Sequence record: KC690136
DNA length: 64,000 nucleotides
Strand: one strand, 5' to 3'
Source of the DNA: Escherichia phage JES2013
In this document: piece by piece, positions 1 through 61,570 of the stretch
Layout of the letters: every line of letters begins with the position of its first letter
Numbering within the stretch: the first letter of the stretch is position 1
The notes under the pieces: generated by a model
Databases searched by the model: none
What the model saw: the letters and a program-made list of their open reading frames with translations, nothing else
Told to the model about the DNA's origin: nothing
Made by a program: the position numbers and the translations under genes

Positions 1-1983
1 TTATTTGATGTTATTCTTTGTATCGATCAGTTCACGGTATTCAATCATAGCAGGAGTGTCCCAATATTTCAAGCCCACATGCTTCAAAAGTGGATATTTC
101 TTTTCCAATCTTGCAATATAGGCCTTCCCGCACTTAACCCGGTTGGCGATTAAGATTTTGGCACGATGATTTAGCTCACTGTGCTTCCACGCGGTGTTAC
201 CTTCCCACTTGTGGAAATGTGGCCGATAATTTCCAAAATCCTGCATGGGGATAATTTTCCCTAATTGTCTATACAGGCTGTCATATGAAGTTTCATTTGC
301 TGCGCGAGTCAGTAAGAATTTCCAGGCGTCCTCTTTCAACAAATGTTCCACATTTTTCTCTGTAACATACTGGCAATCAGGATTAGTCCAAAGCAGACGG
401 GATTCTGATACCAGGTACAGGTCTTCCCCTTCAGGAATCTGGAGTGCCGCACGCACACGGTCATAATTTTGCTGGTAGATGTTACTCAGCTGTCCCAGCC
501 AACAACTTCCACGTTGGATATCACCCTCATAAGGAATGCAGTGCTTAATCTTCTTGAACTCTGCCTTAGTAATACGTTCACGGCGGAAGTAACCATCCTT
601 CTCAAGCTTTTTAACCCAATAACCTGGCTCGTAATGAGTTTTTGTTTCACCTTTCTTCGCAGGTCGGCGAGGGAGCTCTGATAACAATTTGACCGTATCT
701 GCAAAGAACGGGTGGTGTGCCGCTTCTTTAAACTCTTCCACCAGATCCGTGTTACGGCAATAGAAAACGTTGCGTCCGGTGATCTCGCTTAAGTAGTTAC
801 ATTTATTTCGGTTATATTTGCCGTCTCCGTCGTTAAATACAAGGTATACACCTCGTAAGAACTCCGACTTTCCGTAACGAGCATAGCCTATGCGGCCTTT
901 ATTTAAGCCGCCAGCGAAAATTTCACAATCGCCTAAGTCGCCAAGCCCTGTTTCTTCCCAACGGTTCCACATAAAGTTTTTGCCGAAGATGTGTCCGAAC
1001 ACCCCACTATTCTTCATCATTTCACGTGCTTCTGCTGAGGTTTTTGCCGTCTCCAGTTCTGCAACAACTTCTGCCCCGCGAAGACGTATACCTTCTTTAA
1101 CAAAGGCCTCCAGGCGATCCTGGAATCCACCGTCGTCATGGCCCTCTATGGTCCATTCACGCCCAGGGTTAATATTGCAATCCCCGATAGGAATTTCCAC
1201 GCAGATTGCAGGGTAATCGGTCAATGTCTCCAGGAACTTAGAGCGGTAAGGTTGGTGACCCATCACAACACGGCTCTCATCAGAACTGGTATAACCTTTC
1301 AGGATGGTCATTTTCCAGCCATCCTTCTCGTAATGATACTGTGCCTCAACCTTGTCACCTTCTAACATCTTACTGGTCATGGGATCGGTGACGGTGAACG
1401 GAAACTTCGCATAGCGTAAGCACGATGCAATAGCAGTGCGATATTTCAGGACATGCTCTTTCTTAACATGAAACTGAACTTTTACCCCGTTGTGCTCTTC
1501 AGTCTTCCGCTCGCGGATCTTGGTAACGTTTGGGATACCCTGATCCAAGAACAACAGATATGTGCTTTCAACACCGTTGTGCACACTGATCACATCGAAA
1601 GTGTCCACCATGCTGAACGGGGCCTTTGAACCTACACCTTTATTACCTACCAGAGCGTTGCTGTTGCGCTTGGTTGACTCCCCGAGGTTCATGAAAGTGT
1701 TGCGGACCATCTCTTCCGACATGCCCAATCCAACGTCCTGCACAAAGAAGTATGGTTCAAGGTCTGTAGGAGAGTGAATGATGATCGGTACATCACCCCG
1801 TCCAGACTCAACATGGGAGTCCACAGCATTGAAGATTGGTTCACGGCAGCTTGCCAGCACCTTATCTTCGTAAATCCCTTTAATGATTAGCCCAAAAGTC
1901 TCTTTGTTCAGAGAAATTGAGCCCCTGGTGACCTCCATATTTCCGGTTAGTACTGCTTTAGTTTCATTACTGTTTACAATCAT
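1..1983 (-). CDS. rIIA: rIIA-like protein with N-terminal GHKL/HATPase-type fold
   Basis: 660-aa ORF. Motifs VQDVGLGMS and GNKGVGSKAPFSMVDTFDVISVH resemble the T4 rIIA N-terminal ATPase-like domain. Stop codon sits at positions 1-3, so the gene is complete. Confidence 0.7.
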   Translation of the reverse strand: MIVNSNETKAVLTGNMEVTRGSISLNKETFGLIIKGIYEDKVLASCREPIFNAVDSHVESGRGDVPIIIHSPTDLEPYFFVQDVGLGMSEEMVRNTFMNLGESTKRNSNALVGNKGVGSKAPFSMVDTFDVISVHNGVESTYLLFLDQGIPNVTKIRERKTEEHNGVKVQFHVKKEHVLKYRTAIASCLRYAKFPFTVTDPMTSKMLEGDKVEAQYHYEKDGWKMTILKGYTSSDESRVVMGHQPYRSKFLETLTDYPAICVEIPIGDCNINPGREWTIEGHDDGGFQDRLEAFVKEGIRLRGAEVVAELETAKTSAEAREMMKNSGVFGHIFGKNFMWNRWEETGLGDLGDCEIFAGGLNKGRIGYARYGKSEFLRGVYLVFNDGDGKYNRNKCNYLSEITGRNVFYCRNTDLVEEFKEAAHHPFFADTVKLLSELPRRPAKKGETKTHYEPGYWVKKLEKDGYFRRERITKAEFKKIKHCIPYEGDIQRGSCWLGQLSNIYQQNYDRVRAALQIPEGEDLYLVSESRLLWTNPDCQYVTEKNVEHLLKEDAWKFLLTRAANETSYDSLYRQLGKIIPMQDFGNYRPHFHKWEGNTAWKHSELNHRAKILIANRVKCGKAYIARLEKKYPLLKHVGLKYWDTPAMIEYRELIDTKNNIK

Positions 1984-2480
1984 TTATTGCGCTCCTTGTA
2001 GTAGATATGACTCCCGAATTGAGCTGTCCTCTGCATCTTTTTTGCCCATTTCGGTCGTACTTTGGTTGTATGGTAGTGTGTTGCTCCACCTGTTATGTCC
2101 ATAGCCATGTATGCAACATGGTTGTTATTATAGACCTTTAGAAGCATCTTTGCAAGACTTTTAGCGTGATCCCATGAATCTTTTTCTGTCACCTTAAAAG
2201 TTTTGCCGTGGTTTGTCCACGAAAACTGGTTAGGTTGGTAGACAATCTTTCTTATAGTGTCTGGGTATTTGGGGTGAGATTTCCTGTTTAGTGTGGCAAA
2301 CCCTGATGCCAGCATACCCATCGTGCCATCCCCTCTAGCCTCCCTGTAGATATTGCATGCCAGAATGTTTTCCTTAGTATCTGAGGGCTTGCAAGTATGA
2401 TATACTTTTTGTTTTGGTGCTGCAACAACAGGCAGCGATAAAAATGCGCTCAAAATAATAGCAAAGATCTTAATTTTCAC
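1980..2480 (-). CDS. secreted cell-wall hydrolase, SleB/Hydrolase_2-like (candidate endolysin)
   Basis: 166 aa, GTG start after GGAG. N-terminal signal-like segment MKIKIFAIILSAFLSLPVVAAP. Motif NIYREARGDG...NRK...YPDTIRKIVYQPNQFSW matches the SleB-type hydrolase signature. Confidence 0.65.
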   Translation of the reverse strand: MKIKIFAIILSAFLSLPVVAAPKQKVYHTCKPSDTKENILACNIYREARGDGTMGMLASGFATLNRKSHPKYPDTIRKIVYQPNQFSWTNHGKTFKVTEKDSWDHAKSLAKMLLKVYNNNHVAYMAMDITGGATHYHTTKVRPKWAKKMQRTAQFGSHIYYKERNK

Positions 2481-13497: not shown

Positions 13498-16400
13498 TTA
13501 ACGAGAAAAGGTTGCGTAGGCTTCTAGACGATACTGCTGGTCACCAGGGAACATAACACCTATAGAGGCTGTCCCTAGAATCCTGCCTTCCTTTCCAGAC
13601 TCCATTCTGAACCCTACCCATCCTGAACTCCTTGCAGCCTCGATGTTGTCGCTATACCCGAAAGTGGCAAGATCGTCAACACCAGCCCCAAACAGCAACT
13701 GAAGCTGACTTCTCGGAAGCCCTATAATTTCAGGAATATACGCACCAAAGTACACCATCTGCCCTACCTTAGGACCGCTGCCGTACTCCATCGGTTTGCT
13801 TGTAGAGAAAGTCTTCATACCAGAAGTACCTGCCGGATTAGGGTATGCCCCGTTTGTTGCTGTACCTATCCACATTCTCCACTGTGGTGCCATCTGTTTG
13901 ACAGTAAAAGATGTTGAAGACGTTTTGCGCCCTGCATCATCAGTAACTACAAACTTTATGGTGACATTCCCAGTAGCTTTAAATGTTACCAGTCCTGTGG
14001 TGGCATCCACTGTTGCAATGTTGGTATTACTACTTTCCCAAGTCTTTCTAATCCCGGCTACGTTGGAAGGGGTAATAGAAGGTTCCTGCATCTGCAGTTT
14101 ACCACCAACAATCCCTATGCCGTTGCCCGGATTATACAGCACACCAACCTCGTCTATAATGTTCCCTGCTTTGAGACTATACTTCCTTGAGAAGTTGTAA
14201 GTTCCGTTATAAGTGTGTGTCCCTGAGAAGGTGACATCTGCTTTTCCGTAAGAGATGCAAACCAAAGCATACTTCCTGTCAGGCAACGTTGCTCCCGTCT
14301 CTGGGTGAGTTTTACCAACCTGGAACACGCTGGGGTCAGTAGAATCGTGGCTATCGCTGACAGAGCTTGGACCACCCATCAATTGAGGTAAGCAATTCCT
14401 TACCCACGTCCAGTTATTATCGCTAGAGAAGTCAACAGCCAGATCAAATACAACCCACTCATTTGGCTTCCATACTGGTGTTGCAATAGATTTACCTACG
14501 CCACCTCCTTGGAGTGTTGCCGACTGTTCAGTGATCAGGGCCGCATAGGCCAGAGTTCCTAAACTCAAAGTCTGGCTTGCTGTCCTCACTACCTTAGAAT
14601 CAGCATCTGTGAAGTTGTTGATGATCTGGAATGTGCCATAAGTGTTTTTACAGGTAATTCTGGCGTTCAGCGTGTCAATCTTCCTCACATCTGCCATGGC
14701 AGTGTTAGACACAGAGAAGTCAGAAGCTTTAGCTGAGTTTGCCGCAACAGCAGGATCAACGTTAAGAGTTGCGTTGAACTGACAGGCAGGGGTAACCAGC
14801 AGCTTGTTATCACCTATTTGCTTCCATGAAATACTTTGGACAGGTAGATTCCATTTAATACCTGAGAAAACTTTAGCAACCCTTGGCCCCAAAGCTCCAG
14901 TCCTGTTGTCTTTACAGCACATAGACATGGTGATCGTTGACGGAGTTGCCTGACCAAATAATTGCTGTGCTTTTGCAGAGGACATAGTGTAGAAATTGTC
15001 CTTAACAAACTCATCAGCGGCTAAAGATCCATCAGCCCTCCACCACTGAACCTGATACCCTGTTTTGTCCCAACCACCGACCTGCTTCAAGTCCTCCCAG
15101 GAGATTTCTAGATCCCCAGTGGTGGGGTTGATTGCAGCAGTTCCCGGTGTTCCGGGTGACCACAATGGAATATCGAACCACGCTGGTTTAACCGACTGCA
15201 CTGCGCTGGGGCCTATTGCGGCAGCAAGTTGCTGGCCCATCAATACGCGAGCATCTTTCACCAGACCCCACTCGATCATAGACCCAGAGTAACCTTCTTT
15301 CTTGTAGGCTGAGGATCCGTTCAAATGGATGAGTCGGCTTGTGCCAAAGTTATGTGCTCCACCACCGTTGTCGTCTGCAAAATTGGTTATGATTCTATCC
15401 CTGATATTTTTCCATGCCCTGCCCCCAATCTCGTAGTCATGGTCATAACATCTTTGCAGTGTTGTCCAGCAAATGATCGCCATCCTTCTACCATCGCTGA
15501 AGCCAAAGGCCTGATCGTTAAGCTCTCTCCACAAGTAGCAGTTGGTGGTCCACATGGCCCTATGAATGTTAAACCAGTTTATAGATTTGGCTGAGTTGTT
15601 CCACTGAGTCCCAGGTAATTCAGGCCATACTGCATTAACCAGCATGTCTTCTGTTCCTGCATCAACCAAGAACCCTCTCACCTTCTTACCCATGCCTACC
15701 CTATCTTTTGCAATCCAACTGCCAAACAATCTCAGTTTTGGACCGTAGACAACATCTTCCGGATGCTCAAAAGAAATATATTTTAGGTATATTGTAGGGT
15801 CACCATAGGTGCCATCACAAACAGCTTTGTGCATGTTCTCGCCAAGGTCTAGACGAAGTCCTGTTACAACTTTAGACGTGTCGGTGAATTTGTCTGTTAA
15901 ATCAAACTCATACCACCACCAACCTGCACCCAACAATACTTTCTTACAACGCTGTGCATCTGTATCAGATATTCTCTTATCACCTGCAAAAGGTGAGTCA
16001 GCAAACTGATAGTGCAGAGCAATCTCAAAAGGATGTGTGGATGTCCCGTTTTCTGCAAGAACTTGTTTACCTATTAAGTCGCACTTAATGATCATCACAA
16101 CACGTTTGTACCCGTTTGTTACCGGAATTTGCATAGACATGGATGTCCCGTCCATGTTTGATCTCAGTGCAGTCATGATGATATAAGGGTCAACGGCATT
16201 GCCCAGAGTCTCAGGACCGGGGATTATCTTATACTTCTTGACCTGCCCCATGATGTAGTCACTGGCGTAAGTTGCCTCATTCAAGCAAGATCCTCCACCA
16301 GGTAACTCACCAGGTCCCCAGAAAAATGCGCCGTAACAGTTGTAGAACCACTTGTTAGGATCGTATTTATTCTTGAAGGTCTGAACCTCGTTGGCCTGTT

Positions 16401-19026
16401 TTGTCAAGAAAACCTGCGTGTCTGTGAAGATTGCAGGGTTTACTTTCGCCTGTCTTGGAGGGTAACCTGTAGTTTGGTTAAACCACAAATTACAAGAGTA
16501 ATCCCTCATATAGTCATAATCAGAGTATTTGTTTACATCTTCGTTCCAACACATGTTTAGGTTGGTACCGCCCATGCATACAATATATTCTGCGACATAC
16601 TTATCACTTCTGGTAGGAATACCTATGAACCATCTGTTAACAGGCTCATCCCAAGCTGTGCGCTCATCTTTAACGCAGATAGCAATCCAGTCATGTGTTC
16701 CTGTTTTCTTGCACACATCTCGCTTCATACCATAGTAGAACTCTTTAGTATTCGGCTCAGGTGCATTTATCAGGTAACTCCATGCCTGATTTGCATAAGT
16801 TCCATTGGTGCGTGGATCATGATCAAAGGCATACATGATGATCCTTTCCCCACCAAGATGTTCGCCAAGAGTAACTTTGACATTCACATCGCCGTAACCA
16901 TTGCGAACAACATCCATATTATCAATAGAGATACCTCTGGGCGTGTAGGCAATTTTCAGCGAGTTATCTTCACTAGTGCCGCCAAGTGTAATCCCTATGT
17001 TGTTTGTTGTCCCGTCGACATATCTTACTGTAGCTTCCCAGCGTATTCCGAAATATCCTGCATCATGGCTGACAATTTTCAGTGTACGAGCTCCCGGGTG
17101 AGGTTTTCCAGGATCAGGCCAAGGGTCTGGGTGTTCGTGAACAGTCAACGACGTTCCGTTCTGCTCATTAACCTGCAACATTTTACCACCCTTGCCATTA
17201 GGATTGAACTCCCACAAGGCTTGTGTTTTCACAATATTGTCATACGTGGCGCGTCTTTGATCGTAGATCTCTTGGGTCACATCATAAGTGACTGATCCAG
17301 CATCCATTCTGTGGAGTCTGACCATATACGATGTATCCCCTTCTACTGCAGGCTGGGTCCCATTCAGCCCAAAGTATACAGTATCGTTAACATGGAACTG
17401 CTTGTTTCTACCAACGGTATGCCACTTGCCGTTGGACGGATACGCAGGAACTATAGTGTTCCAGTTCAAAGTCCTTGTCGTATAGGTTCTTCCAGTGCCA
17501 TGCTTGTCATGGTAGGTGATCTTGATAGAATACAAACCACGTCTGTTGATGTTACGGTTATACTGGGTGACCACAACTTCGTTAGCACCACCATGGTTCC
17601 AGTTAGTGGAGAACTGATAGTTTGCATCTGTAACAACAGTGCCTGCAGCATTTACCAACTCAATCTTGTCAATAATGAACGTAGCACCCTCCGGCTGAGG
17701 TTTCAATTTCATCTTGACAGTATCTCCGATGTAAATGTTGCTAACATTGCTCACACCATTGACATCAAAGATGTCTTCGATACCCCAGCTATCTACCGGG
17801 ACATTTTTATACCAATTCTCCGGAATCTCTGTGAACCCTTGGCTGTTAAGTCTGCCGCCAAAGAGGTTATTAGATCCTGAAAAACTACCACGTGGTATTC
17901 CTGACCACCAAAGCTTTCCATTTACCACACAGAATGTGCCTAAGAAACCTTCCCTGTGGATCCCTTGAAAATAAACGCTTTCTGTCCAGCTTACTGGCTC
18001 TGTCTGTTCAACAAACTTAGCTGTTGCCAGCGCTCTGTAATGAATAAAATTGGCCCTAGGACTATTATTAGCAGATTGAGCACCAATATCGTTACACAGG
18101 TTTCTGGAGAAACCACGGTACTGTTTTGTACCATTATTGAAGAAAATTCCACTAGTCCCGTACCCGCGAGCCATAATTACTTCATGGGTATAGGTGATGT
18201 TAAGGCTTCTCCACGTGTCGTCACCCCAAACATCCTGACCATAAAACACATTAACAAGCTGTTGGTCATCAGGTTTGTGCATCCTTTCTGTGGCTATAAT
18301 TGCACCATTAGGTCCACACATGAACCCTTTCCATGTCTCGCCCACCGGGATGCCTTTAAACTGGTCAAGAGTCACATGCTCGGCTGGATAAACTAGTGTG
18401 TTTTTGCTGTTATTTCTTAAGAAATCGTAACCTGCAATCCAGAATCCGTTAGGACCACCAAAAATAACCGAGTTGTCATGAACTTCACAATTAATTCTTG
18501 GATTTTTCCAAGGACCTGTCTCTGGACTTTCAGATGTTTCACCGATCTTAACTGGAGTAGCGTGTTGACTTTTGTCAACATGAAGAGAGCCGTAAGTATT
18601 ATTGCCAGAGCCGTACAGGTGAAGCATACCATCAGCCTCTGGTGCAGCAATTACCCACACTGTATTGTTTACGCCACCCATTACTTCAACAAGTCTCTCA
18701 GGATGGGTGTCCAAATGCAACCCTGTTACGATCTGTTCCGGCAAAGGTGTCCACTCTCTGACACAAACATCGTTTCCACCTGCTGCCTCCGATCCGATAA
18801 GACCAGCTGTGCAACCAATATAGAAAAATTTATTATCGAATGTGCGGATTACAAATGCACGGTCAGCTCTCCAAACATGGTCTACGTTCCAAGCTGCCTC
18901 ATTAGGATAGTTTATTGTATCAAGATCTCCAGTCCGACACTCTCCGAACCTATTATAGCCAGTAATATTAAGCTGACCATCATCAAAAAGTATATACATA
19001 GGATACTGTGTTGCTTGTACCATCAC
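13498..19026 (-). CDS. giant tail-fiber / host-range structural protein with C-terminal Ig-like (Big_2-type) domain
   Basis: 1842 aa. Segment IRKTWESSNTNIATVDATTGLVTFKATGNVTIKFVVTDDAG near the C-terminus looks like a bacterial Ig-like domain. Last gene of the late tail module. Confidence 0.5.
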   Translation of the reverse strand: MMVQATQYPMYILFDDGQLNITGYNRFGECRTGDLDTINYPNEAAWNVDHVWRADRAFVIRTFDNKFFYIGCTAGLIGSEAAGGNDVCVREWTPLPEQIVTGLHLDTHPERLVEVMGGVNNTVWVIAAPEADGMLHLYGSGNNTYGSLHVDKSQHATPVKIGETSESPETGPWKNPRINCEVHDNSVIFGGPNGFWIAGYDFLRNNSKNTLVYPAEHVTLDQFKGIPVGETWKGFMCGPNGAIIATERMHKPDDQQLVNVFYGQDVWGDDTWRSLNITYTHEVIMARGYGTSGIFFNNGTKQYRGFSRNLCNDIGAQSANNSPRANFIHYRALATAKFVEQTEPVSWTESVYFQGIHREGFLGTFCVVNGKLWWSGIPRGSFSGSNNLFGGRLNSQGFTEIPENWYKNVPVDSWGIEDIFDVNGVSNVSNIYIGDTVKMKLKPQPEGATFIIDKIELVNAAGTVVTDANYQFSTNWNHGGANEVVVTQYNRNINRRGLYSIKITYHDKHGTGRTYTTRTLNWNTIVPAYPSNGKWHTVGRNKQFHVNDTVYFGLNGTQPAVEGDTSYMVRLHRMDAGSVTYDVTQEIYDQRRATYDNIVKTQALWEFNPNGKGGKMLQVNEQNGTSLTVHEHPDPWPDPGKPHPGARTLKIVSHDAGYFGIRWEATVRYVDGTTNNIGITLGGTSEDNSLKIAYTPRGISIDNMDVVRNGYGDVNVKVTLGEHLGGERIIMYAFDHDPRTNGTYANQAWSYLINAPEPNTKEFYYGMKRDVCKKTGTHDWIAICVKDERTAWDEPVNRWFIGIPTRSDKYVAEYIVCMGGTNLNMCWNEDVNKYSDYDYMRDYSCNLWFNQTTGYPPRQAKVNPAIFTDTQVFLTKQANEVQTFKNKYDPNKWFYNCYGAFFWGPGELPGGGSCLNEATYASDYIMGQVKKYKIIPGPETLGNAVDPYIIMTALRSNMDGTSMSMQIPVTNGYKRVVMIIKCDLIGKQVLAENGTSTHPFEIALHYQFADSPFAGDKRISDTDAQRCKKVLLGAGWWWYEFDLTDKFTDTSKVVTGLRLDLGENMHKAVCDGTYGDPTIYLKYISFEHPEDVVYGPKLRLFGSWIAKDRVGMGKKVRGFLVDAGTEDMLVNAVWPELPGTQWNNSAKSINWFNIHRAMWTTNCYLWRELNDQAFGFSDGRRMAIICWTTLQRCYDHDYEIGGRAWKNIRDRIITNFADDNGGGAHNFGTSRLIHLNGSSAYKKEGYSGSMIEWGLVKDARVLMGQQLAAAIGPSAVQSVKPAWFDIPLWSPGTPGTAAINPTTGDLEISWEDLKQVGGWDKTGYQVQWWRADGSLAADEFVKDNFYTMSSAKAQQLFGQATPSTITMSMCCKDNRTGALGPRVAKVFSGIKWNLPVQSISWKQIGDNKLLVTPACQFNATLNVDPAVAANSAKASDFSVSNTAMADVRKIDTLNARITCKNTYGTFQIINNFTDADSKVVRTASQTLSLGTLAYAALITEQSATLQGGGVGKSIATPVWKPNEWVVFDLAVDFSSDNNWTWVRNCLPQLMGGPSSVSDSHDSTDPSVFQVGKTHPETGATLPDRKYALVCISYGKADVTFSGTHTYNGTYNFSRKYSLKAGNIIDEVGVLYNPGNGIGIVGGKLQMQEPSITPSNVAGIRKTWESSNTNIATVDATTGLVTFKATGNVTIKFVVTDDAGRKTSSTSFTVKQMAPQWRMWIGTATNGAYPNPAGTSGMKTFSTSKPMEYGSGPKVGQMVYFGAYIPEIIGLPRSQLQLLFGAGVDDLATFGYSDNIEAARSSGWVGFRMESGKEGRILGTASIGVMFPGDQQYRLEAYATFSR

Positions 19027-19130
19027 TGTTGTCTATTGGGTATGACAGAACAGCAAGTTCCTTAATTCCACCCCTCTTATCGAGGAAATGACGACCAAGT
19101 TTTAGCAAAGGGATTGGAAGCATTGTGTTC

Positions 19131-19171: not shown

Positions 19172-20917
19172 TTAACGTTGTGCAATTACTACGTCTACGA
19201 TATCACCAACACCACAATACGTTAATTGCAGCAAGGTAACACTGTTAGCCTTGTTGTTAATAACAGGTGTTGCCGACAGGATAGCATACTTATCGTGCAA
19301 AGTCACGTTGTGACCTACAGCATCCTGAATTACATAGATAACCGCAGTGAATGGATAAGGTTTATCTTCCGCTGATGTCCCAGGCCACTGTCCTATTGTA
19401 AAATCCCCTTTCGCGTGAACAACATACATACTGGCCTGCCCGTTAGGTGTCCATGTCCCACTGGACGCGTCAACCTCCTCTAAATCAAAATCTACCTTTC
19501 CTGCGTGGAAAGTAGGGGCAGTAATGGTTTTACCCGCCTCAATTTCTTGAGAGGTGGTTATCTTGCCACTGGAGTTAATGCCATTACAGACAAAGTTGAC
19601 ATTAGAGAAGTCAGGCAACCACCCAGTCACCGTGCCGGATATTTCAAGGTTGTGAACAGAGGTGGTGCCAGTCCCTGCTGCGTTTAAACTGACATCTCCA
19701 TTTACCTGCAAGTTGCGGGTAACGTTGCAGTTTTCAGAGTTTGCAGTTGTTGCAGTTAAAGTGGTTGTTGTCAGCTCGGTAATTACACCTTTGTTGGCTG
19801 TAAGCCCTTCTCCTTCAAAAGTTGCACGCTCATTGACTCTTAAGGTATTCAGAGCTATGTTTTGGATAGAGGCCGTACCTCGAATAACTACAGACCCGCC
19901 AACCTCCAAACCGCCATTTATCAATGCATCACCAGTGCTTTCAATATAGCTAGGGTAGATCATGGTGCCATCGACAGAGTATGTTATCCCTGTAACGGTA
20001 CCTGTCACCTCAAGGTTCTTAACCCTGGTGGTCCCATCGACCTGCAATGTCGGTTCGGTTGCTGCCTTCATGGCATTACCACGAATGTACACGTAGTCAA
20101 AAAAGTTATTACCCAGACCATCAAAATGCACATCGTTATTATTAGCCACTGGTTTCCCAGAAGTTATAGTGTCAGCTATAACCCTGTGGGTGGACACTTC
20201 ATGAGGTTGCAGCTCTGTACTTCTCCAGTCTGCATGCTTAGGATCGCTCCACGCAAAAGTAAGTGTAGAAGTATTTGCCGTGAGGATTAGATTCCTAAAG
20301 CGTGCAGTAGAATCTGCCCCATTAACAGGTCCATGTAAGGTAAGGGTGCCACCAACTATAGTGTTAGCGAGTTCTGTAAGACCTTTTACCACCAAAGACC
20401 CTACAGTTACTTTCATCCCCTCCATGGCTTTGAATATACTGTCCACATAGTCAACAACAAACTCTGTGTTTGCTATAGACTCGGACTTATCGTCCATTGG
20501 AGGTGTAGGTACTCTCGGGTCACCTTCGAACCTTGGACTGTTAAGTTTTGCGTAGTATTTTGCCATTACTGCAGAATCGGTATATAATCTCCAGTTCGGA
20601 GATTCTGAAGGATCTGCTGGCATCCTAACTGGGTTAGATTTTGATGCTGCTGGGGCGTACCACCACTGAGTGCCTGTATCTCCTTTAAACTCATACAACT
20701 GGTTAAAAACTGTTGTGGATGCACCATACGCCCAAGGGATCGGCGGCGTTTTAAAATAAAGGGTGTCAAGCATGGCTTTTCGTACCGTAGGGATAGTGGT
20801 CCCATCCTCTACGACAACTTCATCCACAGCGTTACCGTTGACAATCAAGTGCAAACGTTCAGAATCAACAATTACTTGATCTACCGCCTGCTCGAAGCTT
20901 GTCATGTCTTGCGCCAT
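19172..20917 (-). CDS. tail fiber protein
   Basis: 581 aa, repetitive Thr/Gly/Asn-rich beta-structure segments typical of fibers. Confidence 0.45.
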   Translation of the reverse strand: MAQDMTSFEQAVDQVIVDSERLHLIVNGNAVDEVVVEDGTTIPTVRKAMLDTLYFKTPPIPWAYGASTTVFNQLYEFKGDTGTQWWYAPAASKSNPVRMPADPSESPNWRLYTDSAVMAKYYAKLNSPRFEGDPRVPTPPMDDKSESIANTEFVVDYVDSIFKAMEGMKVTVGSLVVKGLTELANTIVGGTLTLHGPVNGADSTARFRNLILTANTSTLTFAWSDPKHADWRSTELQPHEVSTHRVIADTITSGKPVANNNDVHFDGLGNNFFDYVYIRGNAMKAATEPTLQVDGTTRVKNLEVTGTVTGITYSVDGTMIYPSYIESTGDALINGGLEVGGSVVIRGTASIQNIALNTLRVNERATFEGEGLTANKGVITELTTTTLTATTANSENCNVTRNLQVNGDVSLNAAGTGTTSVHNLEISGTVTGWLPDFSNVNFVCNGINSSGKITTSQEIEAGKTITAPTFHAGKVDFDLEEVDASSGTWTPNGQASMYVVHAKGDFTIGQWPGTSAEDKPYPFTAVIYVIQDAVGHNVTLHDKYAILSATPVINNKANSVTLLQLTYCGVGDIVDVVIAQR

Positions 20918-20926
20918 GATTTCTCC

Positions 20927-21193
20927 TTAAGCTTTTTGCTCTTCGTTTTTAACGTGGTCAGGGTGCTGGCAACCCCACCGGAGCGAGATGAATTTGCTAA
21001 TAAGCTGGGGGCAGGCTACTGAAGGTGCATATATCCACGCATACCATTCAGGAAGCGTATCATTGTACCCCATATGAATAAACACCCCAGTCATCACTGC
21101 CATGCCTATGTTTGACCATAGCTTAGATTGGGACACTTTTGTAGGGTCATCAGATGCCGCAACCAACCCCCATAAAAACTGAGTTAATTTCAT
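20927..21193 (-). CDS. small membrane protein
   Basis: 88 aa with a hydrophobic segment WSNIGMAVMTGVFIHMGY. Confidence 0.35.
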   Translation of the reverse strand: MKLTQFLWGLVAASDDPTKVSQSKLWSNIGMAVMTGVFIHMGYNDTLPEWYAWIYAPSVACPQLISKFISLRWGCQHPDHVKNEEQKA

Positions 21194-21202
21194 TTACCCT
21201 CT

Positions 21203-22246
21203 TTAAGCATAAGATATCGTGATCCATTGACCGTTTACAAGTTTTTGAATAGCACCAGTCCAATAGTCTCCCTGATACGGGTGTTTATAGGCGTAATTGC
21301 CGGAGCACATTACATGCCCAGGGTATACTCTTGATTCTCTGTAGGTGGTTCTGAAACGGTTTGCTATCCTTACATCTTCAACACCCCTACTAGGCATAGG
21401 AATAGTAAGGTTACCACTACTGTCTGCGCTACTACCATTTACCCTGCGGACCACGTTTCTTCCACCAACTGTTGCATATTGACCCCTGGCGGTTTTATCG
21501 TTACAATCTACTCTTCCACCTATTTGAGCGCTGCCGCAGGATTGTTGTCCATTAACAGTGGCTCTAGGTATCGTTACCGCATTAGCATTTGCAGAGGAGC
21601 TTTTTGCATCATTGCATTCAAGATTTCCTTGGATAGCCAGTCTTGCACGGTTGGCAGTTATAGCATTGAGCTTCATAGCCGAAAACACAGGCTGCCCACC
21701 GGAAGGTTGAAATCTCCAACGGAAACCGTCTATTTGGTGAGAGGGATCATCAAGGTCTGTGCCGTCAGCACCACCGATGTTGTCCATAATCCAGAAATCC
21801 ATCATCGTCTTGTCTGGGGTTATGGTGGTATATATTGCCGCATTGTCTGTTGACGCAGATGCAAACTCGATTCTTTGAAGACCTAAAGTTTGAGTCTGAG
21901 TCATTATGTCTCCAGACTTGTCAACATACAGATCGTCCATTTCTTCAGGCGAGTATACATTGAGAACTTGACGTGCAGCAGCTTTGTCTGGAACGTCTGC
22001 TAGATTATTAGTGACCCTTAAGAATCTATTATCCCATCCTGGGACAACATCTTCTGTTAGATGCTTTAACCACGCAGAAAGCATGTGAAGTTCAAAGTTA
22101 ACAACTTCACATGCCACTCTTTGTGTCATATCCCAACCTTTCAATCTCTCTTCTTTTTTTGGTTGAGACTTATTCAACTCTCCCGTATTTTCAAGCACAA
22201 CATCCTGATTGGCCCAAATATCAAGAGGGATAACTGGTTTAGTCAT
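21203..22246 (-). CDS. tail fiber protein, paralog A
   Basis: 347 aa. Paralogous to 23261..24301: shared N-terminus PxxPLxIWA..D.VL.NT and C-terminus QKLVNGQWITxxYA. Confidence 0.55.
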   Translation of the reverse strand: MTKPVIPLDIWANQDVVLENTGELNKSQPKKEERLKGWDMTQRVACEVVNFELHMLSAWLKHLTEDVVPGWDNRFLRVTNNLADVPDKAAARQVLNVYSPEEMDDLYVDKSGDIMTQTQTLGLQRIEFASASTDNAAIYTTITPDKTMMDFWIMDNIGGADGTDLDDPSHQIDGFRWRFQPSGGQPVFSAMKLNAITANRARLAIQGNLECNDAKSSSANANAVTIPRATVNGQQSCGSAQIGGRVDCNDKTARGQYATVGGRNVVRRVNGSSADSSGNLTIPMPSRGVEDVRIANRFRTTYRESRVYPGHVMCSGNYAYKHPYQGDYWTGAIQKLVNGQWITISYA

Positions 22247-22335
22247 CGCGTTCTCCTGAGAAAATTCCTTAGGACTATTTTAACACTTTAGAGAACAAAA
22301 TGCAAGAACGGAGTCCTTTCCGTTCTGACCTTTGT

Positions 22336-22650
22336 TTACCTTTTACTATGCTCTACGAGCATGTGCAAAATCTTTTGTACATCAGCTCGGATACCGGAGA
22401 CATCTGTCCTGACATCCTGCTTAAGGTCGTTAATATCGGCCTCTAGCTTGCTTAACCGGGTCTCGATAACGGAATCAAGTTTATCTTTTGTAACCATACT
22501 GTTTTTCACTAAGATGAGGTCTTTCTCCAGTTCATCCAACCTCTTGGAAATGCCTTTCCATTTGGTGTGCCACTGGTTGAAAGCCCATACACAGATCGGG
22601 ACAACGGTACCCATGCAGATACCGTACAATGCCGCCAAATCCAACTCCAC
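22336..22650 (-). CDS. small membrane coiled-coil protein
   Basis: 104 aa. N-terminal hydrophobic helix LYGICMGTVVPICVWAF followed by heptad-like charged repeats. Confidence 0.35.
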   Translation of the reverse strand: MELDLAALYGICMGTVVPICVWAFNQWHTKWKGISKRLDELEKDLILVKNSMVTKDKLDSVIETRLSKLEADINDLKQDVRTDVSGIRADVQKILHMLVEHSKR

Positions 22651-22661
22651 AACACCTCCTC

Positions 22662-23246
22662 TTAGAGGGTAGGTCGCTCCGGGAAGAAAATGTCAGGGGC
22701 TTTAGATGTATCTATTTCAAGAAGTTTTACCCTGTACATTTTCAAATCTCTGATGTTACGTTTCTGGTCATCAGTAAGATCATATTCAAGGTCAATCATG
22801 TCTTGATAGGCACCAATTCTAGCAGTAGCCCAAGCAAGTTCTGTCTCTATGACACCCTCTGCCTGTTGAACAAAGAATTCATTATCTGTGACAAATTCAT
22901 CACCAACTAAACGCAAAGCGTCGTGGTGAAGCATAATGTTTTCTGGTACCTCTTCTTTTTTGGCGATAACCACACGAAGACCTGGAGCAGGCCATAAGGC
23001 ATCAGGTTCTTCTGTAGATGTCTTAAGAATTCCCTTCTCGTCAACAAGTAGGAAGATACAACCCGGATTTTCTTGTCGCAATGTTCGTGACTGCACATAC
23101 CAATCGCCATCATCATTACGTAAAAAATACCCAGTGTATGCTGTGTAATCCTCAACCTCTTGAGGGGTCAGCTCCTTGGTTTCCTTGTTGGTGCGGTATT
23201 CGCCAGATCCCGGTTGGTAAAGTTTAAACTCTTGAAGTATTTTCAT
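22662..23246 (-). CDS. tail fiber assembly chaperone (Tfa-like)
   Basis: 194 aa, directly downstream of fiber paralog B; C-terminal DIFFPERP is Tfa-like. Confidence 0.45.
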   Translation of the reverse strand: MKILQEFKLYQPGSGEYRTNKETKELTPQEVEDYTAYTGYFLRNDDGDWYVQSRTLRQENPGCIFLLVDEKGILKTSTEEPDALWPAPGLRVVIAKKEEVPENIMLHHDALRLVGDEFVTDNEFFVQQAEGVIETELAWATARIGAYQDMIDLEYDLTDDQKRNIRDLKMYRVKLLEIDTSKAPDIFFPERPTL

Positions 23247-23260
23247 GCTAGTCCTCCGAT

Positions 23261-24301
23261 CTATGCATAATTAACAGTGATCCATTGACCATTTACAAGT
23301 TTTTGTAAAGGTCCTGCCCAGTAGGTTGAACCACGCATCTCTTTTTTGTCACCGAAATGCCAGCCTGTGACAACGTAGCCGTTGCGGATTGGAGATTCAG
23401 AAACTCCGTCCACAAGTCTTGCACCGATTCTGATGTCTTGCACACCTGTCTGCGGGATAGTGATCGTTACATCACCGTTACCGTTAGCCGTCACTCCGTT
23501 CACAGAGCGAACCACATTTCTGTTACCGACAACACAGTGCTGGCTTCTTACAACCATACTGTCACAACTTGCACCACCATTAACATACACTGACCCAGCC
23601 GTCAACTGACTAGCCACATTACAGTTGGTGAATGTTGCTGTATTGCTGATAGTAAGGTTATTGCACCTCATGTTATCGACAACTTCAACATTGCCTACCA
23701 CTTTCAACAGCGCACGATTAGCCGTGATCGCGTTAAGGTACATCAAAGTGAACTCTGGATTAATATCCGGCTGAGTTGGCTGGAATCTCCAACGAAACGC
23801 ATCTACCGTAGATGTACCACCATCATCAAACGACCCGGTATTATCACTTAACCCAAAGTCGAGAGTTGTCTTATCTGGGCCAATAGTTGTCTCTATCCAA
23901 GCCTTATCTGTCTCGGCAGCTTTAAAGTTGATACGTTGCAAACCCAATGGGCCTGTCATTGTATCACCTGTAACTTTTACATACCTGGCGTCTGCCTCTT
24001 CCTTAGTAATAATCCCAAGGTTTCTACGGGCAACAGGGATGTTCAAAAGATCACTCAAGTTATTATCACGTACCAGATAACGGCCTTCTTGAGCGGGGAT
24101 CTGCTCGTCAGCAATGTATTTTGCCCAAGTTCCGAGCATATTGAAAATATAGTTAAGTTCTTCACATGAGGGCTTTTGACCAAGATCCCAACCTTTTCTC
24201 CACAAATCATCAATCGGGCGTAGCCTGTTCTGTCTGTGGGTGTTAGGCAGAACCTGATCCTCCTCTGCCCAAATCTCTAATGGAAAACTAGGTTTTGACA
24301 T
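23261..24301 (-). CDS. tail fiber protein, paralog B
   Basis: 346 aa. Motifs ARRNLGI and GDTMTGPL; paralog of 21203..22246. Confidence 0.55.
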   Translation of the reverse strand: MSKPSFPLEIWAEEDQVLPNTHRQNRLRPIDDLWRKGWDLGQKPSCEELNYIFNMLGTWAKYIADEQIPAQEGRYLVRDNNLSDLLNIPVARRNLGIITKEEADARYVKVTGDTMTGPLGLQRINFKAAETDKAWIETTIGPDKTTLDFGLSDNTGSFDDGGTSTVDAFRWRFQPTQPDINPEFTLMYLNAITANRALLKVVGNVEVVDNMRCNNLTISNTATFTNCNVASQLTAGSVYVNGGASCDSMVVRSQHCVVGNRNVVRSVNGVTANGNGDVTITIPQTGVQDIRIGARLVDGVSESPIRNGYVVTGWHFGDKKEMRGSTYWAGPLQKLVNGQWITVNYA

Positions 24302-24313: not shown

Positions 24314-26386
24314 TTATGAGAAGTCTGGCGGGACAACATCTTCTACATACCCTTTCAGAGCAACCTGCCCCATATGAAGCACGGTAGAATCTCTAGCGGT
24401 AACAGTGATGCTGTCAGACATTACTTGCGGGTATGCCCACACATACTGTTTTACCTCAGGGTATCTATACTCTATAGTTGCCATGTTTCCGCAAATACAT
24501 CTCCATAAAAATTCTTGGTAATTCCTAGTTGGGTCGTAGCCATATACCGGAGCAAGCTCTTTACTAGGAACGAACCCTGCAAGGTATTGTATTTCAGACG
24601 GTTGCCAACCTAACTTAACGATAGGTATGTTTACAGACTCTTTTGCCTTTTCAATACCTCCCTGCATCACCCAATCGTAGCACTCGGTGCAGAAGAAATC
24701 AAGAGCACCTGCTTCTTTTTTATATTGGTCAGCAAGGTTCAGCTTTTGCGTAAGCTCGGTTTCCATAATGGTTGGGAAAAACAGTAGAGCTGTCATCTGA
24801 GCTGATGCAGCGTGTGCCTTTATTGCCTTTGAAATAGCCGCAATACGAGCGCCAAGCTTACCACGACAAAATGCTACATACTTGTCGTAAACACCGCCAG
24901 TTTTAGGATCGTCAATAGTCCCAATATCTAATGCATACTCACCTGTCTCATCATAAAACGCCTGTTTTGTAGGGTAATCATAAATACAAGGTCTACGAGT
25001 ATCGGTATTGAACCACCACCACGGTTCACCAACCTGCATAATCACTGGCAGGTTGTTTCTCATAGCGGCTGATGCAAAATTCTTAAATACTGCCGTAAGG
25101 AAATTCATACCCTCTTCAATGGTTGGAGACAGGAGGTAGCTACAAGGTGTATACCCTGTTTTAGCGTAGTTATCGTTCCAGTCTCTTTGGGTCCATTCCA
25201 ACGGACAGGCATCGCTGTAAAGCTCAAAACTTACAGACTGCATAACGTCGAAGTTGTGTCGTTTGGCATTGTACATAAAATCATCATGCCATTTATAAGC
25301 TGCAGCGTTTAGCGCCCCTGTTCTGTTTATAGACCATTGGGTTCCTGACCATGTGTAGTCATAATAATGACTCATACCAACATAGTGGTTTATGGTTCCG
25401 GTATAGCCCAGACGCTTGATATTGTTCAACACCCTTAAAGGAGATACGTTCCACATATCGTCATATGCGGTGCAGATCCCGACGTCGTGCTCTTTAACCT
25501 GAATATTGTTAAGTTGCATCATTTTCCAGCCCGTGTCTGGCTGAAGCAGATCTAGGCGCAACTCACACTCTACATTTTCCGTTCTCGGGTCTGTGCTATT
25601 ACTTACCCAGTCTTTAGGCATAAGCGGTATTAAAATCCTTCTCACCTGCCGAGGATCAACACCCATCATGTTGTTGTTCTGATCCATCCCGACGCAGTCC
25701 TCGAAATCAATATGAATCTCTGCAACATTCTTATCCTCTGAGATGCTGACAGCATATTGAGCTAAAGGAACATAGATGATTGTGCCATCAACAAGGTCTA
25801 CAGTCATAATCATCTTTTCAGGAGTGGAGAAGTTGCTGGCATTGGTTATTGACATTCTGAACCAAAGCTTGGTGTTTCTCATCTCATAGTGATCATCAAA
25901 CCCAATACCGAAATGGTCATACTTGTCAACTGTTTCCCAAATGCACCCAGCCATACCTCCATATGTTCTTGACACTAAACGGTTAATACAACAGTTGTCA
26001 TCTGCAACAATACAGGTACTTTCAGTCTGCTGAGTGGTTGTAACCCAATATCTTGGGTGAAACATTCTCTCCTCAACAGTATCCCAGGATATCCTGTCAA
26101 GATTCTCATCTGAAACTATTGTACATTTCGCCCTTTGTGTCCCAATCATCACCCCTTGAGATTTTGATGAAAACTCCATAAAGAAGCTTCTTGGTAACCT
26201 GTTGGGTAATTTGTCAACAATTTCCACGGGGATCTCAATACTGGTTGCCCCAATTGGGATAGTTACATCGCCCTCAACATGATTATAATCCCTACCAGGA
26301 ACGGCAGTATCCTGAACTGTTCGGTAGTGAAACTGTGCAGCCATTGTAGAGTAATCACGGTAAGGTTTAAAAACAGCTGTTGCCAT
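24314..26386 (-). CDS. tail/baseplate-associated structural protein
   Basis: 690 aa, Trp/Tyr-rich. N-terminal segment GRDYNHVEGDVTIPIGATSIEIPVEIVD is Calx-beta-like. Confidence 0.35.
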   Translation of the reverse strand: MATAVFKPYRDYSTMAAQFHYRTVQDTAVPGRDYNHVEGDVTIPIGATSIEIPVEIVDKLPNRLPRSFFMEFSSKSQGVMIGTQRAKCTIVSDENLDRISWDTVEERMFHPRYWVTTTQQTESTCIVADDNCCINRLVSRTYGGMAGCIWETVDKYDHFGIGFDDHYEMRNTKLWFRMSITNASNFSTPEKMIMTVDLVDGTIIYVPLAQYAVSISEDKNVAEIHIDFEDCVGMDQNNNMMGVDPRQVRRILIPLMPKDWVSNSTDPRTENVECELRLDLLQPDTGWKMMQLNNIQVKEHDVGICTAYDDMWNVSPLRVLNNIKRLGYTGTINHYVGMSHYYDYTWSGTQWSINRTGALNAAAYKWHDDFMYNAKRHNFDVMQSVSFELYSDACPLEWTQRDWNDNYAKTGYTPCSYLLSPTIEEGMNFLTAVFKNFASAAMRNNLPVIMQVGEPWWWFNTDTRRPCIYDYPTKQAFYDETGEYALDIGTIDDPKTGGVYDKYVAFCRGKLGARIAAISKAIKAHAASAQMTALLFFPTIMETELTQKLNLADQYKKEAGALDFFCTECYDWVMQGGIEKAKESVNIPIVKLGWQPSEIQYLAGFVPSKELAPVYGYDPTRNYQEFLWRCICGNMATIEYRYPEVKQYVWAYPQVMSDSITVTARDSTVLHMGQVALKGYVEDVVPPDFS

Positions 26387-27072
26387 TAACCCTCCTGTCT
26401 AGTTGCGTTTACTGTAATACTTTCACAATAAATGGTTGTGGTGTCCCAATCAGGTCTTACGTCAGGAACATATAGCAAAGTAGCCAGCCCACCAACTCCG
26501 AATTGGTTTTCTTCCCACACTGATCCGAAGCCAAGAGCTGTAGAGTCCCCTTCAAAACCAAAAGCTTGCCCTTGCGATTCTGTAAGACGCAAATGACAAG
26601 GCAATGGTAGCATATCTAAGATCTGATCGATAGACTGCAATATGTCAAAGCAAGTTTTTCTAATATTTATGTCAAACCTGAAGTTGTCTCCTTTCCACGT
26701 ATCGAAATTGTCTCTTCCGAACAATTGTCGCAAGGTGGAGATGACATCTTCGCGAGTCCCGCCCCTTGATGCTGCGGCCTGCTGAATAATTAGTGTGGCA
26801 CGAAAATCAGCATCTGAAAGTCCATTCCTAAGAATACCAAGTTGATTACCAACTTCGTCAAGGTATCTTCCGCTGGCATTGTTAAGCAATCTTCCTTCAG
26901 CCAAACCTACCAGCATCTTATCAACATCCTCCAACCTTTTAAGGTATACGGTTAAGAATGTGACTAAATTAACCTTCTCAGCCAGAAAATCTCCAGGCAG
27001 GTAGTCAAGACCTCCCTGAACAAAATCTGGCAGAGTGTGGATGTGGTTAACATCCGACTTAATCTCTGCCAT
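26386..27072 (-). CDS. putative baseplate protein
   Basis: 228 aa; position next to a large baseplate-like gene. Confidence 0.3.
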   Translation of the reverse strand: MAEIKSDVNHIHTLPDFVQGGLDYLPGDFLAEKVNLVTFLTVYLKRLEDVDKMLVGLAEGRLLNNASGRYLDEVGNQLGILRNGLSDADFRATLIIQQAAASRGGTREDVISTLRQLFGRDNFDTWKGDNFRFDINIRKTCFDILQSIDQILDMLPLPCHLRLTESQGQAFGFEGDSTALGFGSVWEENQFGVGGLATLLYVPDVRPDWDTTTIYCESITVNATRQEG

Positions 27073-27083: not shown

Positions 27084-28574
27084 TTAAATAGTTTGTTGGA
27101 AAGTTATATTACTTTCGTCGAGGTCAAACACCTCGGTCATGTTCGCAACAATATCGTTTGTAGTGTAAGCTTCATCAGAAGCTCCTACGGATTTAACTTG
27201 AATTACCAGTCTATTAAATCTGCCTATTGACACAGCAGCGGATGCAGCACCGACCAATTGGATATTGTATAACGTATCTGCAACATCCAGTCCGTTAACA
27301 ACCTGCAAAAGAGCCTCTACAATGGCATCTTTTTCGGTTGTGGAAAGCGCAGCACCGGAGTAGGTAATTCTTACATCCAAGCGGTAGGTATTTGCCCTGG
27401 AGTAATAAATTCTTTCAGTTTGACCGTCAGATGTAGTGACATCGTAGAAAATATTACCATAAGTCCTGTTCGTACAGGCTATAGTTTGGTAAAGTGCTTG
27501 GCAAATGTCCTCCGTTGCACCACCAAACACAACCACTTGGAACTTGTAAGGAGGTATACCTTTAGCATCAGTTTTATCGGTATTGTTAGAGAACACTCTC
27601 ACTTTCTCAACACCTTTCACCTCGCTTACAGCGCTAAGGATTGCAGGACGGGTAGCCTTAGATGTTAACTGTTTTGTGCTGGAAGCTCTTAAGCGATACT
27701 CTGAGTCTTTCTCAACATCCCTGCCCTCATTGAATCTTTCTCTGTTGGTAAGCTTGATAAATCCACTGGGAGTAGGTGACATTGTTGTCACGGTTTCTGC
27801 CTCTCTTGACAGCTCACCAGCCTCGTTAGCGATAACATCCAGGGTGATAGTTCTTTCCCCTACAATCGGAGATACTCTGAAATCTACCCTACTATTAAGT
27901 CCAACTTGATCAAGATTCGAATTGTACCCTATCCACAACGTTCCTGTCAACATATCGATCTGAATCAAATCGTCGTTCAACAGGGTTGTATTATCGACAA
28001 TGAATTGCTTAATCTCTCCGTAAAAGCTTGGCAGATCAGAAGAGTCCAGAGCCTTATCTGTTAAAACCAAACTTTTTGTTTTGATACTTCCATCTGTCTG
28101 GTTGGTAATTTGAAAGTTGTATTTACCAATCCTCAGGTCTGGAGCATTTATTCTGTGGGCAATAAGATTCCCTGCCACTTGCACATCATTGCTAAGAACA
28201 AAGTTGCCACTATCCAGCGTATAAGTTTTGGAATCATAAATCATATTGTACGGCACAGTTGTGTTGATCGTCAACTGGCAGGTACCTGATGATTTAGAAC
28301 GGCCTCTTCGGTAAATACCCTGTCTTCCAAGAAGCTCATCTAGGTAAATACCTTCTGCCCCATACAGCGTCTGTGATGCGTATACAGATGCTGCCATAAG
28401 AATAAGTTGATACTCTCGCTCGTTGAAGATAGTGGTCAGCTTATCTGCAACGGAGTTACTCTGTACGTTGAAGTTTTCGCCAAAAGCACGGATCAGGCTT
28501 TGCTTAGTTTCAACGATTAGGTCATTTAGGGTTGGTATAACGAAACCAGCCTCTGTCAATCCATACTTAGCCAC
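27084..28574 (-). CDS. putative baseplate wedge protein (gp6/J-like by position and size)
   Basis: 496-aa ORF following a terminator; call by gene order only. Confidence 0.3.
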   Translation of the reverse strand: MAKYGLTEAGFVIPTLNDLIVETKQSLIRAFGENFNVQSNSVADKLTTIFNEREYQLILMAASVYASQTLYGAEGIYLDELLGRQGIYRRGRSKSSGTCQLTINTTVPYNMIYDSKTYTLDSGNFVLSNDVQVAGNLIAHRINAPDLRIGKYNFQITNQTDGSIKTKSLVLTDKALDSSDLPSFYGEIKQFIVDNTTLLNDDLIQIDMLTGTLWIGYNSNLDQVGLNSRVDFRVSPIVGERTITLDVIANEAGELSREAETVTTMSPTPSGFIKLTNRERFNEGRDVEKDSEYRLRASSTKQLTSKATRPAILSAVSEVKGVEKVRVFSNNTDKTDAKGIPPYKFQVVVFGGATEDICQALYQTIACTNRTYGNIFYDVTTSDGQTERIYYSRANTYRLDVRITYSGAALSTTEKDAIVEALLQVVNGLDVADTLYNIQLVGAASAAVSIGRFNRLVIQVKSVGASDEAYTTNDIVANMTEVFDLDESNITFQQTI

Positions 28575-61325: not shown

Positions 61326-61402
61326 TGGTCTCCACGGAGTGATTCGAACACTCGACCTCCTGATCCCAAATCAGGCGCTCTACCAAGCTGAGCTACGCGG
61401 AG
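61326..61402 (-). tRNA. tRNA-Pro (anticodon TGG)
   Basis: 77 nt with encoded CCA. Acceptor CTCCGCG/CGTGGAG, anticodon loop TTTGGGA, T-arm GAGTG-TTCGAAT-CACTC. Confidence 0.8.
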
Positions 61403-61413
61403 TATTCATTATT

Positions 61414-61488: not shown

Positions 61489-61489
61489 A

Positions 61490-61565: not shown

Positions 61566-61570
61566 AAAAA

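Follow-up and report, generated by a model that had tools for sequence, protein, structure and literature searches.

The stretch of DNA analysed here, referred to as the window, comprises 64,000 nucleotides of Escherichia phage JES2013 (sequence record KC690136), and the locus of interest occupies positions 20,927 to 24,301. This locus is very probably the short-tail-fibre (STF) module of an rV5-like Vequintavirus, in which two old paralogous fibres are combined with a single tail fibre assembly chaperone (Tfa) and two conserved small inner-membrane proteins. In order of transcription, all on the minus strand, it consists of short tail fibre paralog B (23261..24301; 346 amino acids (aa), orthologue of rV5 gp33), Tfa (22662..23246; 194 aa, rV5 gp32), a 104-aa membrane protein (22336..22650; rV5 gp31), short tail fibre paralog A (21203..22246; 347 aa, rV5 gp30) and an 88-aa small protein (20927..21193; rV5 gp29). 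A preliminary description of this DNA had proposed the two fibre open reading frames (ORFs) and the two small ones, and all four are present on the minus strand at exactly its coordinates. The small proteins are the remainder of a three-gene membrane cassette from which, in Vequintavirus, a gene for a multi-pass protein is gone, with copy A standing in its place. That selection maintains both fibre copies, that copy A displaced a conserved multi-pass gene, and that the two small proteins belong to the core genes of the subfamily are modest additions of this analysis.

The window is assigned to the genus Vequintavirus because the 8.1-kb stretch around the locus matches more than 100 rV5-like genomes, among them rV5/V5, FFH2, APECc02 and CarlMeissner, along its entire length at 98% nucleotide identity; judged by this identity, its source is an rV5-like myophage. 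The coordinates of the window run nearly parallel to those of rV5, and the annotations of CarlMeissner and rV5_ev146 match. Phages of this kind are among the commonest Escherichia coli phage isolates and are candidates for therapy and biocontrol. The fibre pair of rV5 has been described as similar in size, with HHpred similarity to T4 gp12 and 42.3% identity between gp30 and gp33 (Kropinski 2013, PMC3606486). The Vequintavirinae sensu stricto have likewise been characterised by two paralogous short tail fibres and a chaperone, whose genes in the rV5-type phages are homologous to a single phi92-like locus and ultimately to Mu GpS/GpU, with no considerable allelic variation in these genes (Maffei 2021, BASEL, PMC8594841). 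The rV5 locus with gp30/gp33 and gp32 (Kropinski 2013; Maffei 2021, S5D Fig) and the present one are the same in gene order and lengths as well as in sequence (98% nucleotide identity), with no essential difference between them, the window representing another isolate of the genus. The paralog pair, its 42% identity and its single chaperone are already published, and the locus is ordinary apart from the two small proteins.

The paralogy of A and B, as proposed in the preliminary description, is confirmed by an end-to-end alignment (42% identity, E value 2e-94), and the end motifs quoted there are present in the forms IPLDIWA / FPLEIWA and QKLVNGQWITISYA / QKLVNGQWITVNYA. The proposed pattern of conserved ends around a divergent centre does not describe the pair. 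The identity profile along the alignment is instead a mosaic of five conserved blocks (positions 1-20, 111-160, 189-208, 253-282 and 323-347 of A; 55-65% identity) and three divergent blocks (51-100, 209-252 with indels, and 293-322; 20-35% identity). The C-terminal motif is indeed shared by both copies, yet it is not special to them, as the form QK.VNG.W.T is common to A, B and the fibres of other genera. Both proteins match the whole 342-position profile of phrog_4465 (A at 2.5e-165, B at 1.8e-171), and the peptides HLTEDVVPGWDNR and YIADEQIPAQEGR are unique to A and B, respectively.

Copy B begins with a baseplate-docking domain, continues with a shaft and ends in a distal tip that is Mu gpS-like and of the phi92/Seunavirus type. 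Residues 1-108 of B match residues 1-111 of the STF of phage phiTE (chain 9cuy_c) at 1.4e-19, and residues 1-83 of A match the same region at 1.7e-8. In the phiTE structure the N-terminal residues 3-92 of the STF are modelled on wedge 1, and the orthologous phi92 gp147 has been equated with 'fibre III' of the baseplate wedge, where it docks on gp145. At the other end, residues 286-343 of B match residues 440-501 of Mu gpS (5yvq_A; 1.7e-6). A phmmer search gave no Mu gpS match for A, which still aligns to B through the tip and retains the terminal motif. The two anciently diverged fibres, predicted to be trimeric, would thus share an N-terminal joint that in relatives plugs into the baseplate wedge, and a C-terminal, Tfa-dependent, Mu gpS-like receptor-binding end.

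Among the known systems closest to the module is the gpS/gpU pair of Mu (PDB 5YVQ, 9KI1), which resembles it in the tip of copy B and in the possession of a chaperone of the Caudo_TAP family, and Mu also has two alternative fibre/chaperone sets. In Mu, however, DNA inversion switches between S/U and S′/U′, so that a separate Tfa goes with either fibre, whereas the two fibre genes of the window have a fixed, common orientation and presumably share one Tfa in co-expression; moreover, the N-terminal docking domain is of the phiTE/phi92 rather than the Mu type, and copy A has no detectable Mu match. Fibre III of phi92 (gp147, with gp148 as its Tfa) and the phiTE STF (PDB 9CUY) are orthologous fibres with a homologous wedge-binding N-terminal joint, but both phages have a single copy where the present locus has two, and the phiTE STF is longer, contains immunoglobulin-like (Ig-like) domains and targets flagella.

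Judged by the number of matches to B per record, which is two in every Vequintavirus and one in every other genus, the fibre duplication does not extend beyond the genus Vequintavirus. Avunavirus, Mydovirus and Seunavirus each have one orthologue, to which copy B is 47-50% identical, against 45% to A. No other member of the family is as divergent as A, whose identity to all others is 39-45%. Over its last 55 aa, B is 56-57% identical to phi92 gp147 and to the SSE121 fibre and 43% identical to A. Since B is nearer to the orthologues than to A, these identities indicate that B retains the common phi92/Seunavirus-type tip and that A is the diverged copy; A shares its docking domain and C-terminal motif with B but has a tip that is specific to the genus. 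The duplication must be old, because at the DNA level the two copies align over their last 48 nt alone (83% identity). Recent gene conversion between A and B outside these 48 nt was considered and rejected, there being no DNA alignment elsewhere.

The product of ORF 22662..23246 is a genuine Tfa. Its residues 121-192 match Pfam Caudo_TAP (PF02413) with 45.8 bits against a gathering cut-off of 22.1 (8.5e-12), and the protein matches phrog_136 at 2.4e-36. The gene begins 15 nt past the stop codon of copy B, and the earlier statement that a Tfa-like gene follows B but not A is borne out. A tblastn search of the window with five Tfa queries found no second Tfa-like gene, 22662..23246 being the sole match. 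Because both fibres keep the family-wide C-terminal motif and there is no other Tfa gene in the 64 kb, the single Tfa most likely folds both of them.

The small proteins are best understood from the gene order in relatives, where a fibre gene and Tfa are followed by a 104-120-aa protein with a transmembrane (TM) helix and a coiled coil, a 152-157-aa multi-pass protein, an 86-95-aa protein and the next fibre. The cassette of three genes between Tfa and the next fibre is conserved throughout the Vequintavirinae and thus no invention of the window phage. This order was seen in Mydovirus (KP12, Mydo), Certrevirus (phiTE, KaOmega, SSBI34, W70), Seunavirus (SSE121) and Avunavirus (24-2-1), and also in one more distant metagenomic relative; a second, short metagenomic contig has it up to the multi-pass gene, which the next fibre gene follows directly. 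In other genera the start of the multi-pass gene (newer Pfam name Phage_phiTE_239) overlaps the stop of the preceding 104-aa-type gene. The multi-pass protein is present in 107 phage records, none of them rV5-like, and tblastn with four orthologues detected no remnant of its gene in the window (nothing below an E value of 0.96). The slot of this gene is occupied in Vequintavirus by a hairpin, a promoter motif and fibre copy A, so that the window phage retains two of the three cassette genes that phiTE keeps in full. A 104-aa-type gene lies directly after Tfa in six or more lineages. In phi92 the TM and coiled-coil gene (gp149) is likewise found right after Tfa and an 88-aa-type protein (gp144) is also encoded, as in the window, but the latter has a different place within the fibre cluster.

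The hairpin and, after it, the promoter motif lie in the 89 bp that separate the 104-aa gene from copy A (22247..22335). The hairpin (22305..22326, minus strand), predicted by pattern scan and folding, is terminator-like and lies directly 3′ of the 104-aa gene. It has the form AGAACGGA-loop-TCCGTTCT followed by a T-rich tract, with a folding energy of -25.8 kcal/mol (z = -2.67), and its pairing is retained in YP-6 and NHEP1 by a double change from A-U to C-G and in MiataMamis as a G-U pair. The motif TGTTAAAATA (22276..22285, minus strand), 30 nt upstream of the start codon of A, was listed as the predicted late promoter P030 of rV5 (Kropinski 2013, PMC3606486, Table S4) and is invariant in six Vequintavirus genomes. 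Copy B, Tfa and the 104-aa gene would thus end a predicted late unit, starting at P036, at the conserved hairpin, and A, the 88-aa gene and the gp28 gene would form the next unit, transcribed from its own predicted late promoter.

Six Vequintavirus genomes (five comparisons) were used to estimate the ratio of non-synonymous to synonymous substitution rates (dN/dS) and to assess ORF integrity. All five genes are intact in the six genomes, and both small ORFs have dN/dS values of 0.00-0.04; the 88-aa protein has 39 synonymous and 2 non-synonymous differences over the five comparisons. Between genera, identity is highest for the 88-aa protein (46-51%), followed by the fibres (31-47%), the 104-aa protein (23-34%) and Tfa (22-31%). 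The suggestion in the preliminary description that the small proteins are not structural is probably correct: these are real genes under purifying selection, and their orthologues are absent both from the virion proteome of phage CB7, where CB7_32 to CB7_35 are not among the 26 virion proteins detected by mass spectrometry (MS), and from the phiTE virion model. The two surviving proteins would therefore be late-expressed, non-virion proteins of the inner membrane. They are core genes of the subfamily.

The same description called both of them single-helix membrane proteins, which is clear for the 104-aa protein and not firm for the 88-aa one. In the 104-aa protein a single N-terminal TM helix is clear (about residues 5-23; Kyte-Doolittle maximum 1.91 over 19 residues, threshold 1.6), and a coiled coil of about 75 aa comes after it. 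Its ORF starts with GTG behind an AGGAGG Shine-Dalgarno sequence, both conserved in the six genomes. In some rV5-like records (YP-6, NHEP1; positions 1411..1725 of the compared locus) the gene is annotated as 92 aa from an internal ATG, with the loss of half of the TM helix. Since members of the family have an acidic N-terminus (MELDL) and, without exception, 4-5 lysine or arginine residues within 15 residues after the helix, the positive-inside rule predicts an N-out/C-in topology with a cytoplasmic coiled coil. The protein matches phrog_5345 at 1e-48, and a Pfam scan returned sub-threshold coiled-coil matches alone. A HMMER search with a profile of the family against 1.84 billion representatives yielded 13 matches, all of the same phage clade or generic coiled coils, with none bridging to a known family. 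Word-indexed homologue searches with both small proteins returned close relatives only.

The 88-aa protein is weakly hydrophobic, its Kyte-Doolittle 19-residue maximum of 1.05 falling under the threshold of 1.6. The AlphaFold model is of low confidence (pLDDT 58) and contains a 20-residue helix (residues 22-41) at a pLDDT of about 70; a second, amphipathic region and a variable C-tail, charged but approximately neutral, complete the protein. A membrane location is plausible in view of the helix 22-41, of the orthologue phi92 gp144 (Kyte-Doolittle maximum 1.71) and of the database labels, the family phrog_1322 (matched at 2.7e-32) being labelled 'membrane protein'. The family comprises 367 phage records, including phi92 gp144 and Phapecoctavirus, and a scan of bacterial genomes found no relatives. 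The local Pfam copy gave no match to DUF2644 (PF10841), one homologue in NR is named DUF2644, and hhalign aligned the family with a metagenomic orthologue bearing a precomputed PF10841 match at a probability of 99.8%. The DUF2644 label thus comes from external annotation, and the family is one without known function.

As to what the small proteins do, the TM and coiled-coil protein, the DUF2644-type protein and, in other genera, the multi-pass protein may tentatively be regarded as a conserved late inner-membrane system of the Vequintavirinae and phi92-like phages, acting either as a lysis trigger or regulator, with the 104-aa protein as a releasin analogue, or as a platform for STF assembly, and rewired in rV5-like phages when the second fibre gene replaced the multi-pass subunit. 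Both small proteins are reasonable candidates for lysis-control or fibre-assembly functions. For the 104-aa protein the preferred role, itself no more than a tentative choice, is that of an accessory factor in the cytoplasm that is tethered to the membrane and coupled to STF/Tfa assembly. A role in lysis, like that of a releasin or antiholin, is the second choice and a somewhat doubtful one; assembly is placed slightly ahead because the adjacency to Tfa survives even the phi92 rearrangements. In T4, the small coiled-coil protein gp57A can be needed for short tail fibre trimerisation, and gene t, which encodes the holin, is located downstream of the tail-fibre genes 37/38, so that a late fibre operon may include a gene for lysis. 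Neither T4 protein has sequence similarity that could be found to the small proteins, and gp57A has no membrane anchor.

The releasin of Mu, gp25, resembles the 104-aa protein in size, in being the product of a late gene and in architecture, that is a predicted N-out/C-in topology with a short periplasmic stub, one TM helix and a cytoplasmic helical domain of about 75 aa. The two differ in setting: a releasin gene is expected at most about five genes downstream of the endolysin gene in a transposable phage, whereas the phage here is a virulent myophage in which the 104-aa gene has Tfa and a fibre gene as neighbours and no endolysin gene within five genes. Homology of the 104-aa family to gp25 and DUF2730 (PF10805) was examined and is unsupported, the architecture alone being common. 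The PF10805 profile gave no match at E values up to 10 for the window protein and four orthologues, and pairwise BLAST against the gp25/DUF2730 family gave an E value of 0.04. An hhalign comparison with the gp25 family produced a collinear 92-column match (probability 54%, P 1.2e-4), but in a local rerun the score of 21.3 was equalled by a reversed control (22.2) and a shifted control (22.4); shuffled controls were also run.

The strongest competing explanation is that both small proteins are lysis-timing factors, the 88-aa protein a holin or pinholin and the 104-aa protein a membrane-tethered regulator akin to an antiholin or releasin, with expression from the late fibre operon comparable to that of T4 t beside gene 38. 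This is possible, although rather less than likely. No holin has been identified experimentally in this subfamily, both genes lie in the predicted late operon, the 88-aa protein combines a weakly hydrophobic helix with a second amphipathic region and a variable charged C-tail, and the phage encodes a SleB-like hydrolase with a signal peptide; the gp25-like architecture and the collinear hhalign match point the same way, offset by the control scores and by the missing DUF2730 match. Against it, rV5 gp129, the published guess for the rV5 holin (Kropinski 2013, PMC3606486), is far more holin-like, being a genus-restricted, fast-evolving protein whose tail is basic and which has two strong TM helices. 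For a holin, the 88-aa protein would show unusual conservation, given that it exceeds Tfa in identity between genera, and its C-tail is not basic. Furthermore, neither gene is near an endolysin gene, the gene for the muramidase (rV5 gp89) being outside the window and the SleB-like gene at 1980..2480, and the spanin pair is found elsewhere, adjoining the terminase gene.

It is improbable that the small proteins are superinfection-exclusion or host-takeover morons beside receptor-binding genes, in the manner of T5 llp, Cor and P2 fun(Z). Their position adjoining fibre genes would suit such a function, as would the PHROGs category of phrog_1322 ('moron, auxiliary metabolic gene and host takeover'). 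The genes are, however, co-oriented and tightly packed in a late structural operon, and their position is unchanged across several genera and two subfamilies, at dN/dS values near 0, which is the behaviour of core genes and not of morons. No matches were found in PADLOC or NCBIfam, and the 88-aa protein also has no Pfam match; the receptors, moreover, would be glycans, which an inner-membrane protein could not mask.

The divergence of the fibres is fixed. In the comparisons of six genomes, dN/dS is 0.045-0.07 for A, 0.00-0.04 for B and 0.04-0.16 for Tfa, and at least 112 genomes carry the full 3.4-kb region, with 95.8-98.2% identity. The preliminary description had read the divergence of the pair as receptor-binding diversification, with a decaying copy as the alternative. 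Neither applies: the divergence is old, both copies are near invariant within the genus (dN/dS 0.00-0.07), and strong purifying selection together with intact genes in at least 112 genomes refutes both decay and active diversification. It is thus very unlikely that A is a redundant or decaying duplicate and B alone functional, a reading that could appeal to the missing Tfa gene of A, its greater divergence, its lack of a Mu gpS match by phmmer and the absence of peptides of either copy from the rV5 MS dataset. Copy A is intact in 6/6 genomes, is under the constraint given above, belongs to a region that at least 112 genomes carry in full, is preceded by an invariant late-promoter motif of its own and retains both the docking domain and the C-terminal motif. 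That the 104-aa protein could be an i-spanin (Rz-like), which its size, N-terminal TM helix and coiled coil might suggest, is hardly credible, since its charge distribution predicts the opposite topology (N-out/C-in), no lipoprotein (lipobox) gene is adjacent or embedded, and a conserved Rz/Rz1 pair already adjoins the terminase gene.

For the STF module, copy B would presumably bind the conserved outer-core glucose of lipopolysaccharide (LPS), and copy A would presumably recognise another LPS-core chemotype, in keeping with the suggestion that two LPS chemotypes may be recognised by gp30/gp33 (Kropinski 2013, PMC3606486). Which STF binds which LPS core, and whether each virion displays both, matters for predicting and engineering host range; this question has been posed in the literature and is little advanced here. 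Several points weigh against the picture of two displayed fibres served by one chaperone and a membrane-tethered assembly factor. None of six diagnostic tryptic peptides (two of gp30 and four of gp33) was found in the rV5 MS supplement, and Table S3 of Kropinski 2013 (PMC3606486) carries no 'MS evidence' flag for gp30/gp33, though the text of that paper lists both. In rV5-like BASEL phages (Bas49, Bas54), STF density was seen at 7-9.5 Å, at which A and B are indistinguishable (RBPseg, PMC12143355). The receptors named for A and B are presumed, the folding of both fibres by gp32 is a predicted role, and the late promoter of A is a motif prediction. The assembly role of the 104-aa protein is argued from conserved gene adjacency, and no similarity to T4 gp57A or to any chaperone family was found.

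Upstream of the module in the same operon, all on the minus strand, are a Baseplate-J type wedge protein (27084..28574), a baseplate wedge protein (26386..27072) and a 690-aa gp34-type fibre with Calx-beta and N4 gp65-like TIM barrel domains (24314..26386). Downstream are the genes for a 581-aa and a 1842-aa fibre. The 581-aa protein (19172..20917, minus strand; orthologue of rV5 gp28) is a lateral or long tail fibre (LTF) homologous to the LTF of phiTE (phiTE_241; BLASTP 6e-62), the N-terminus of which contacts wedge 2 and the sheath initiator in the phiTE structure determined by cryo-electron microscopy.

Elsewhere in the window, the SleB-like cell wall hydrolase (1980..2480, minus strand; orthologue of rV5 gp2) is directly upstream of rIIA in transcription order and begins with a Sec signal peptide (MKIKIFAIILSAFLSLPVVAAP...). 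Toxicity on expression has been reported for its homologue in CB7, and a secreted hydrolase of this type is relevant to lysis control in this phage. The predicted i-spanin (60506..60904, minus strand) next to the terminase gene is a 132-aa protein with an N-terminal TM helix and a coiled coil, and after it comes a four-gene tRNA cluster (Pro, Met, Thr and Arg; 61326..61862, minus strand). The coordinates of the i-spanin and tRNA genes are offset from those of rV5, and the terminase/intron region therefore differs in length.

Two observations concern the sequence records themselves. Compared with CarlMeissner and rV5_ev146, the window lacks 11 bp (AATAGCTTAGC) at about position 18994 (within 18940..19130, minus strand), a deletion which causes a frameshift 43 codons into the gene for a 1878-aa gp27-type Ig-like fibre. 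The usual ATG at 19123 now opens an ORF of only 46 aa, and the long ORF (13498..19026) starts in another frame. The 11 bases are present in 89/89 full-length matches of the phage collection, the deletion thus being unique to this genome, and it reflects either an assembly error or a fibre with an altered N-terminus. Some 16-21 GenBank records named 'Campylobacter phage' (host C. jejuni) are about 98% identical to the rV5-like E. coli phages at the locus, which suggests mislabelled hosts or contaminating coliphages in that dataset.

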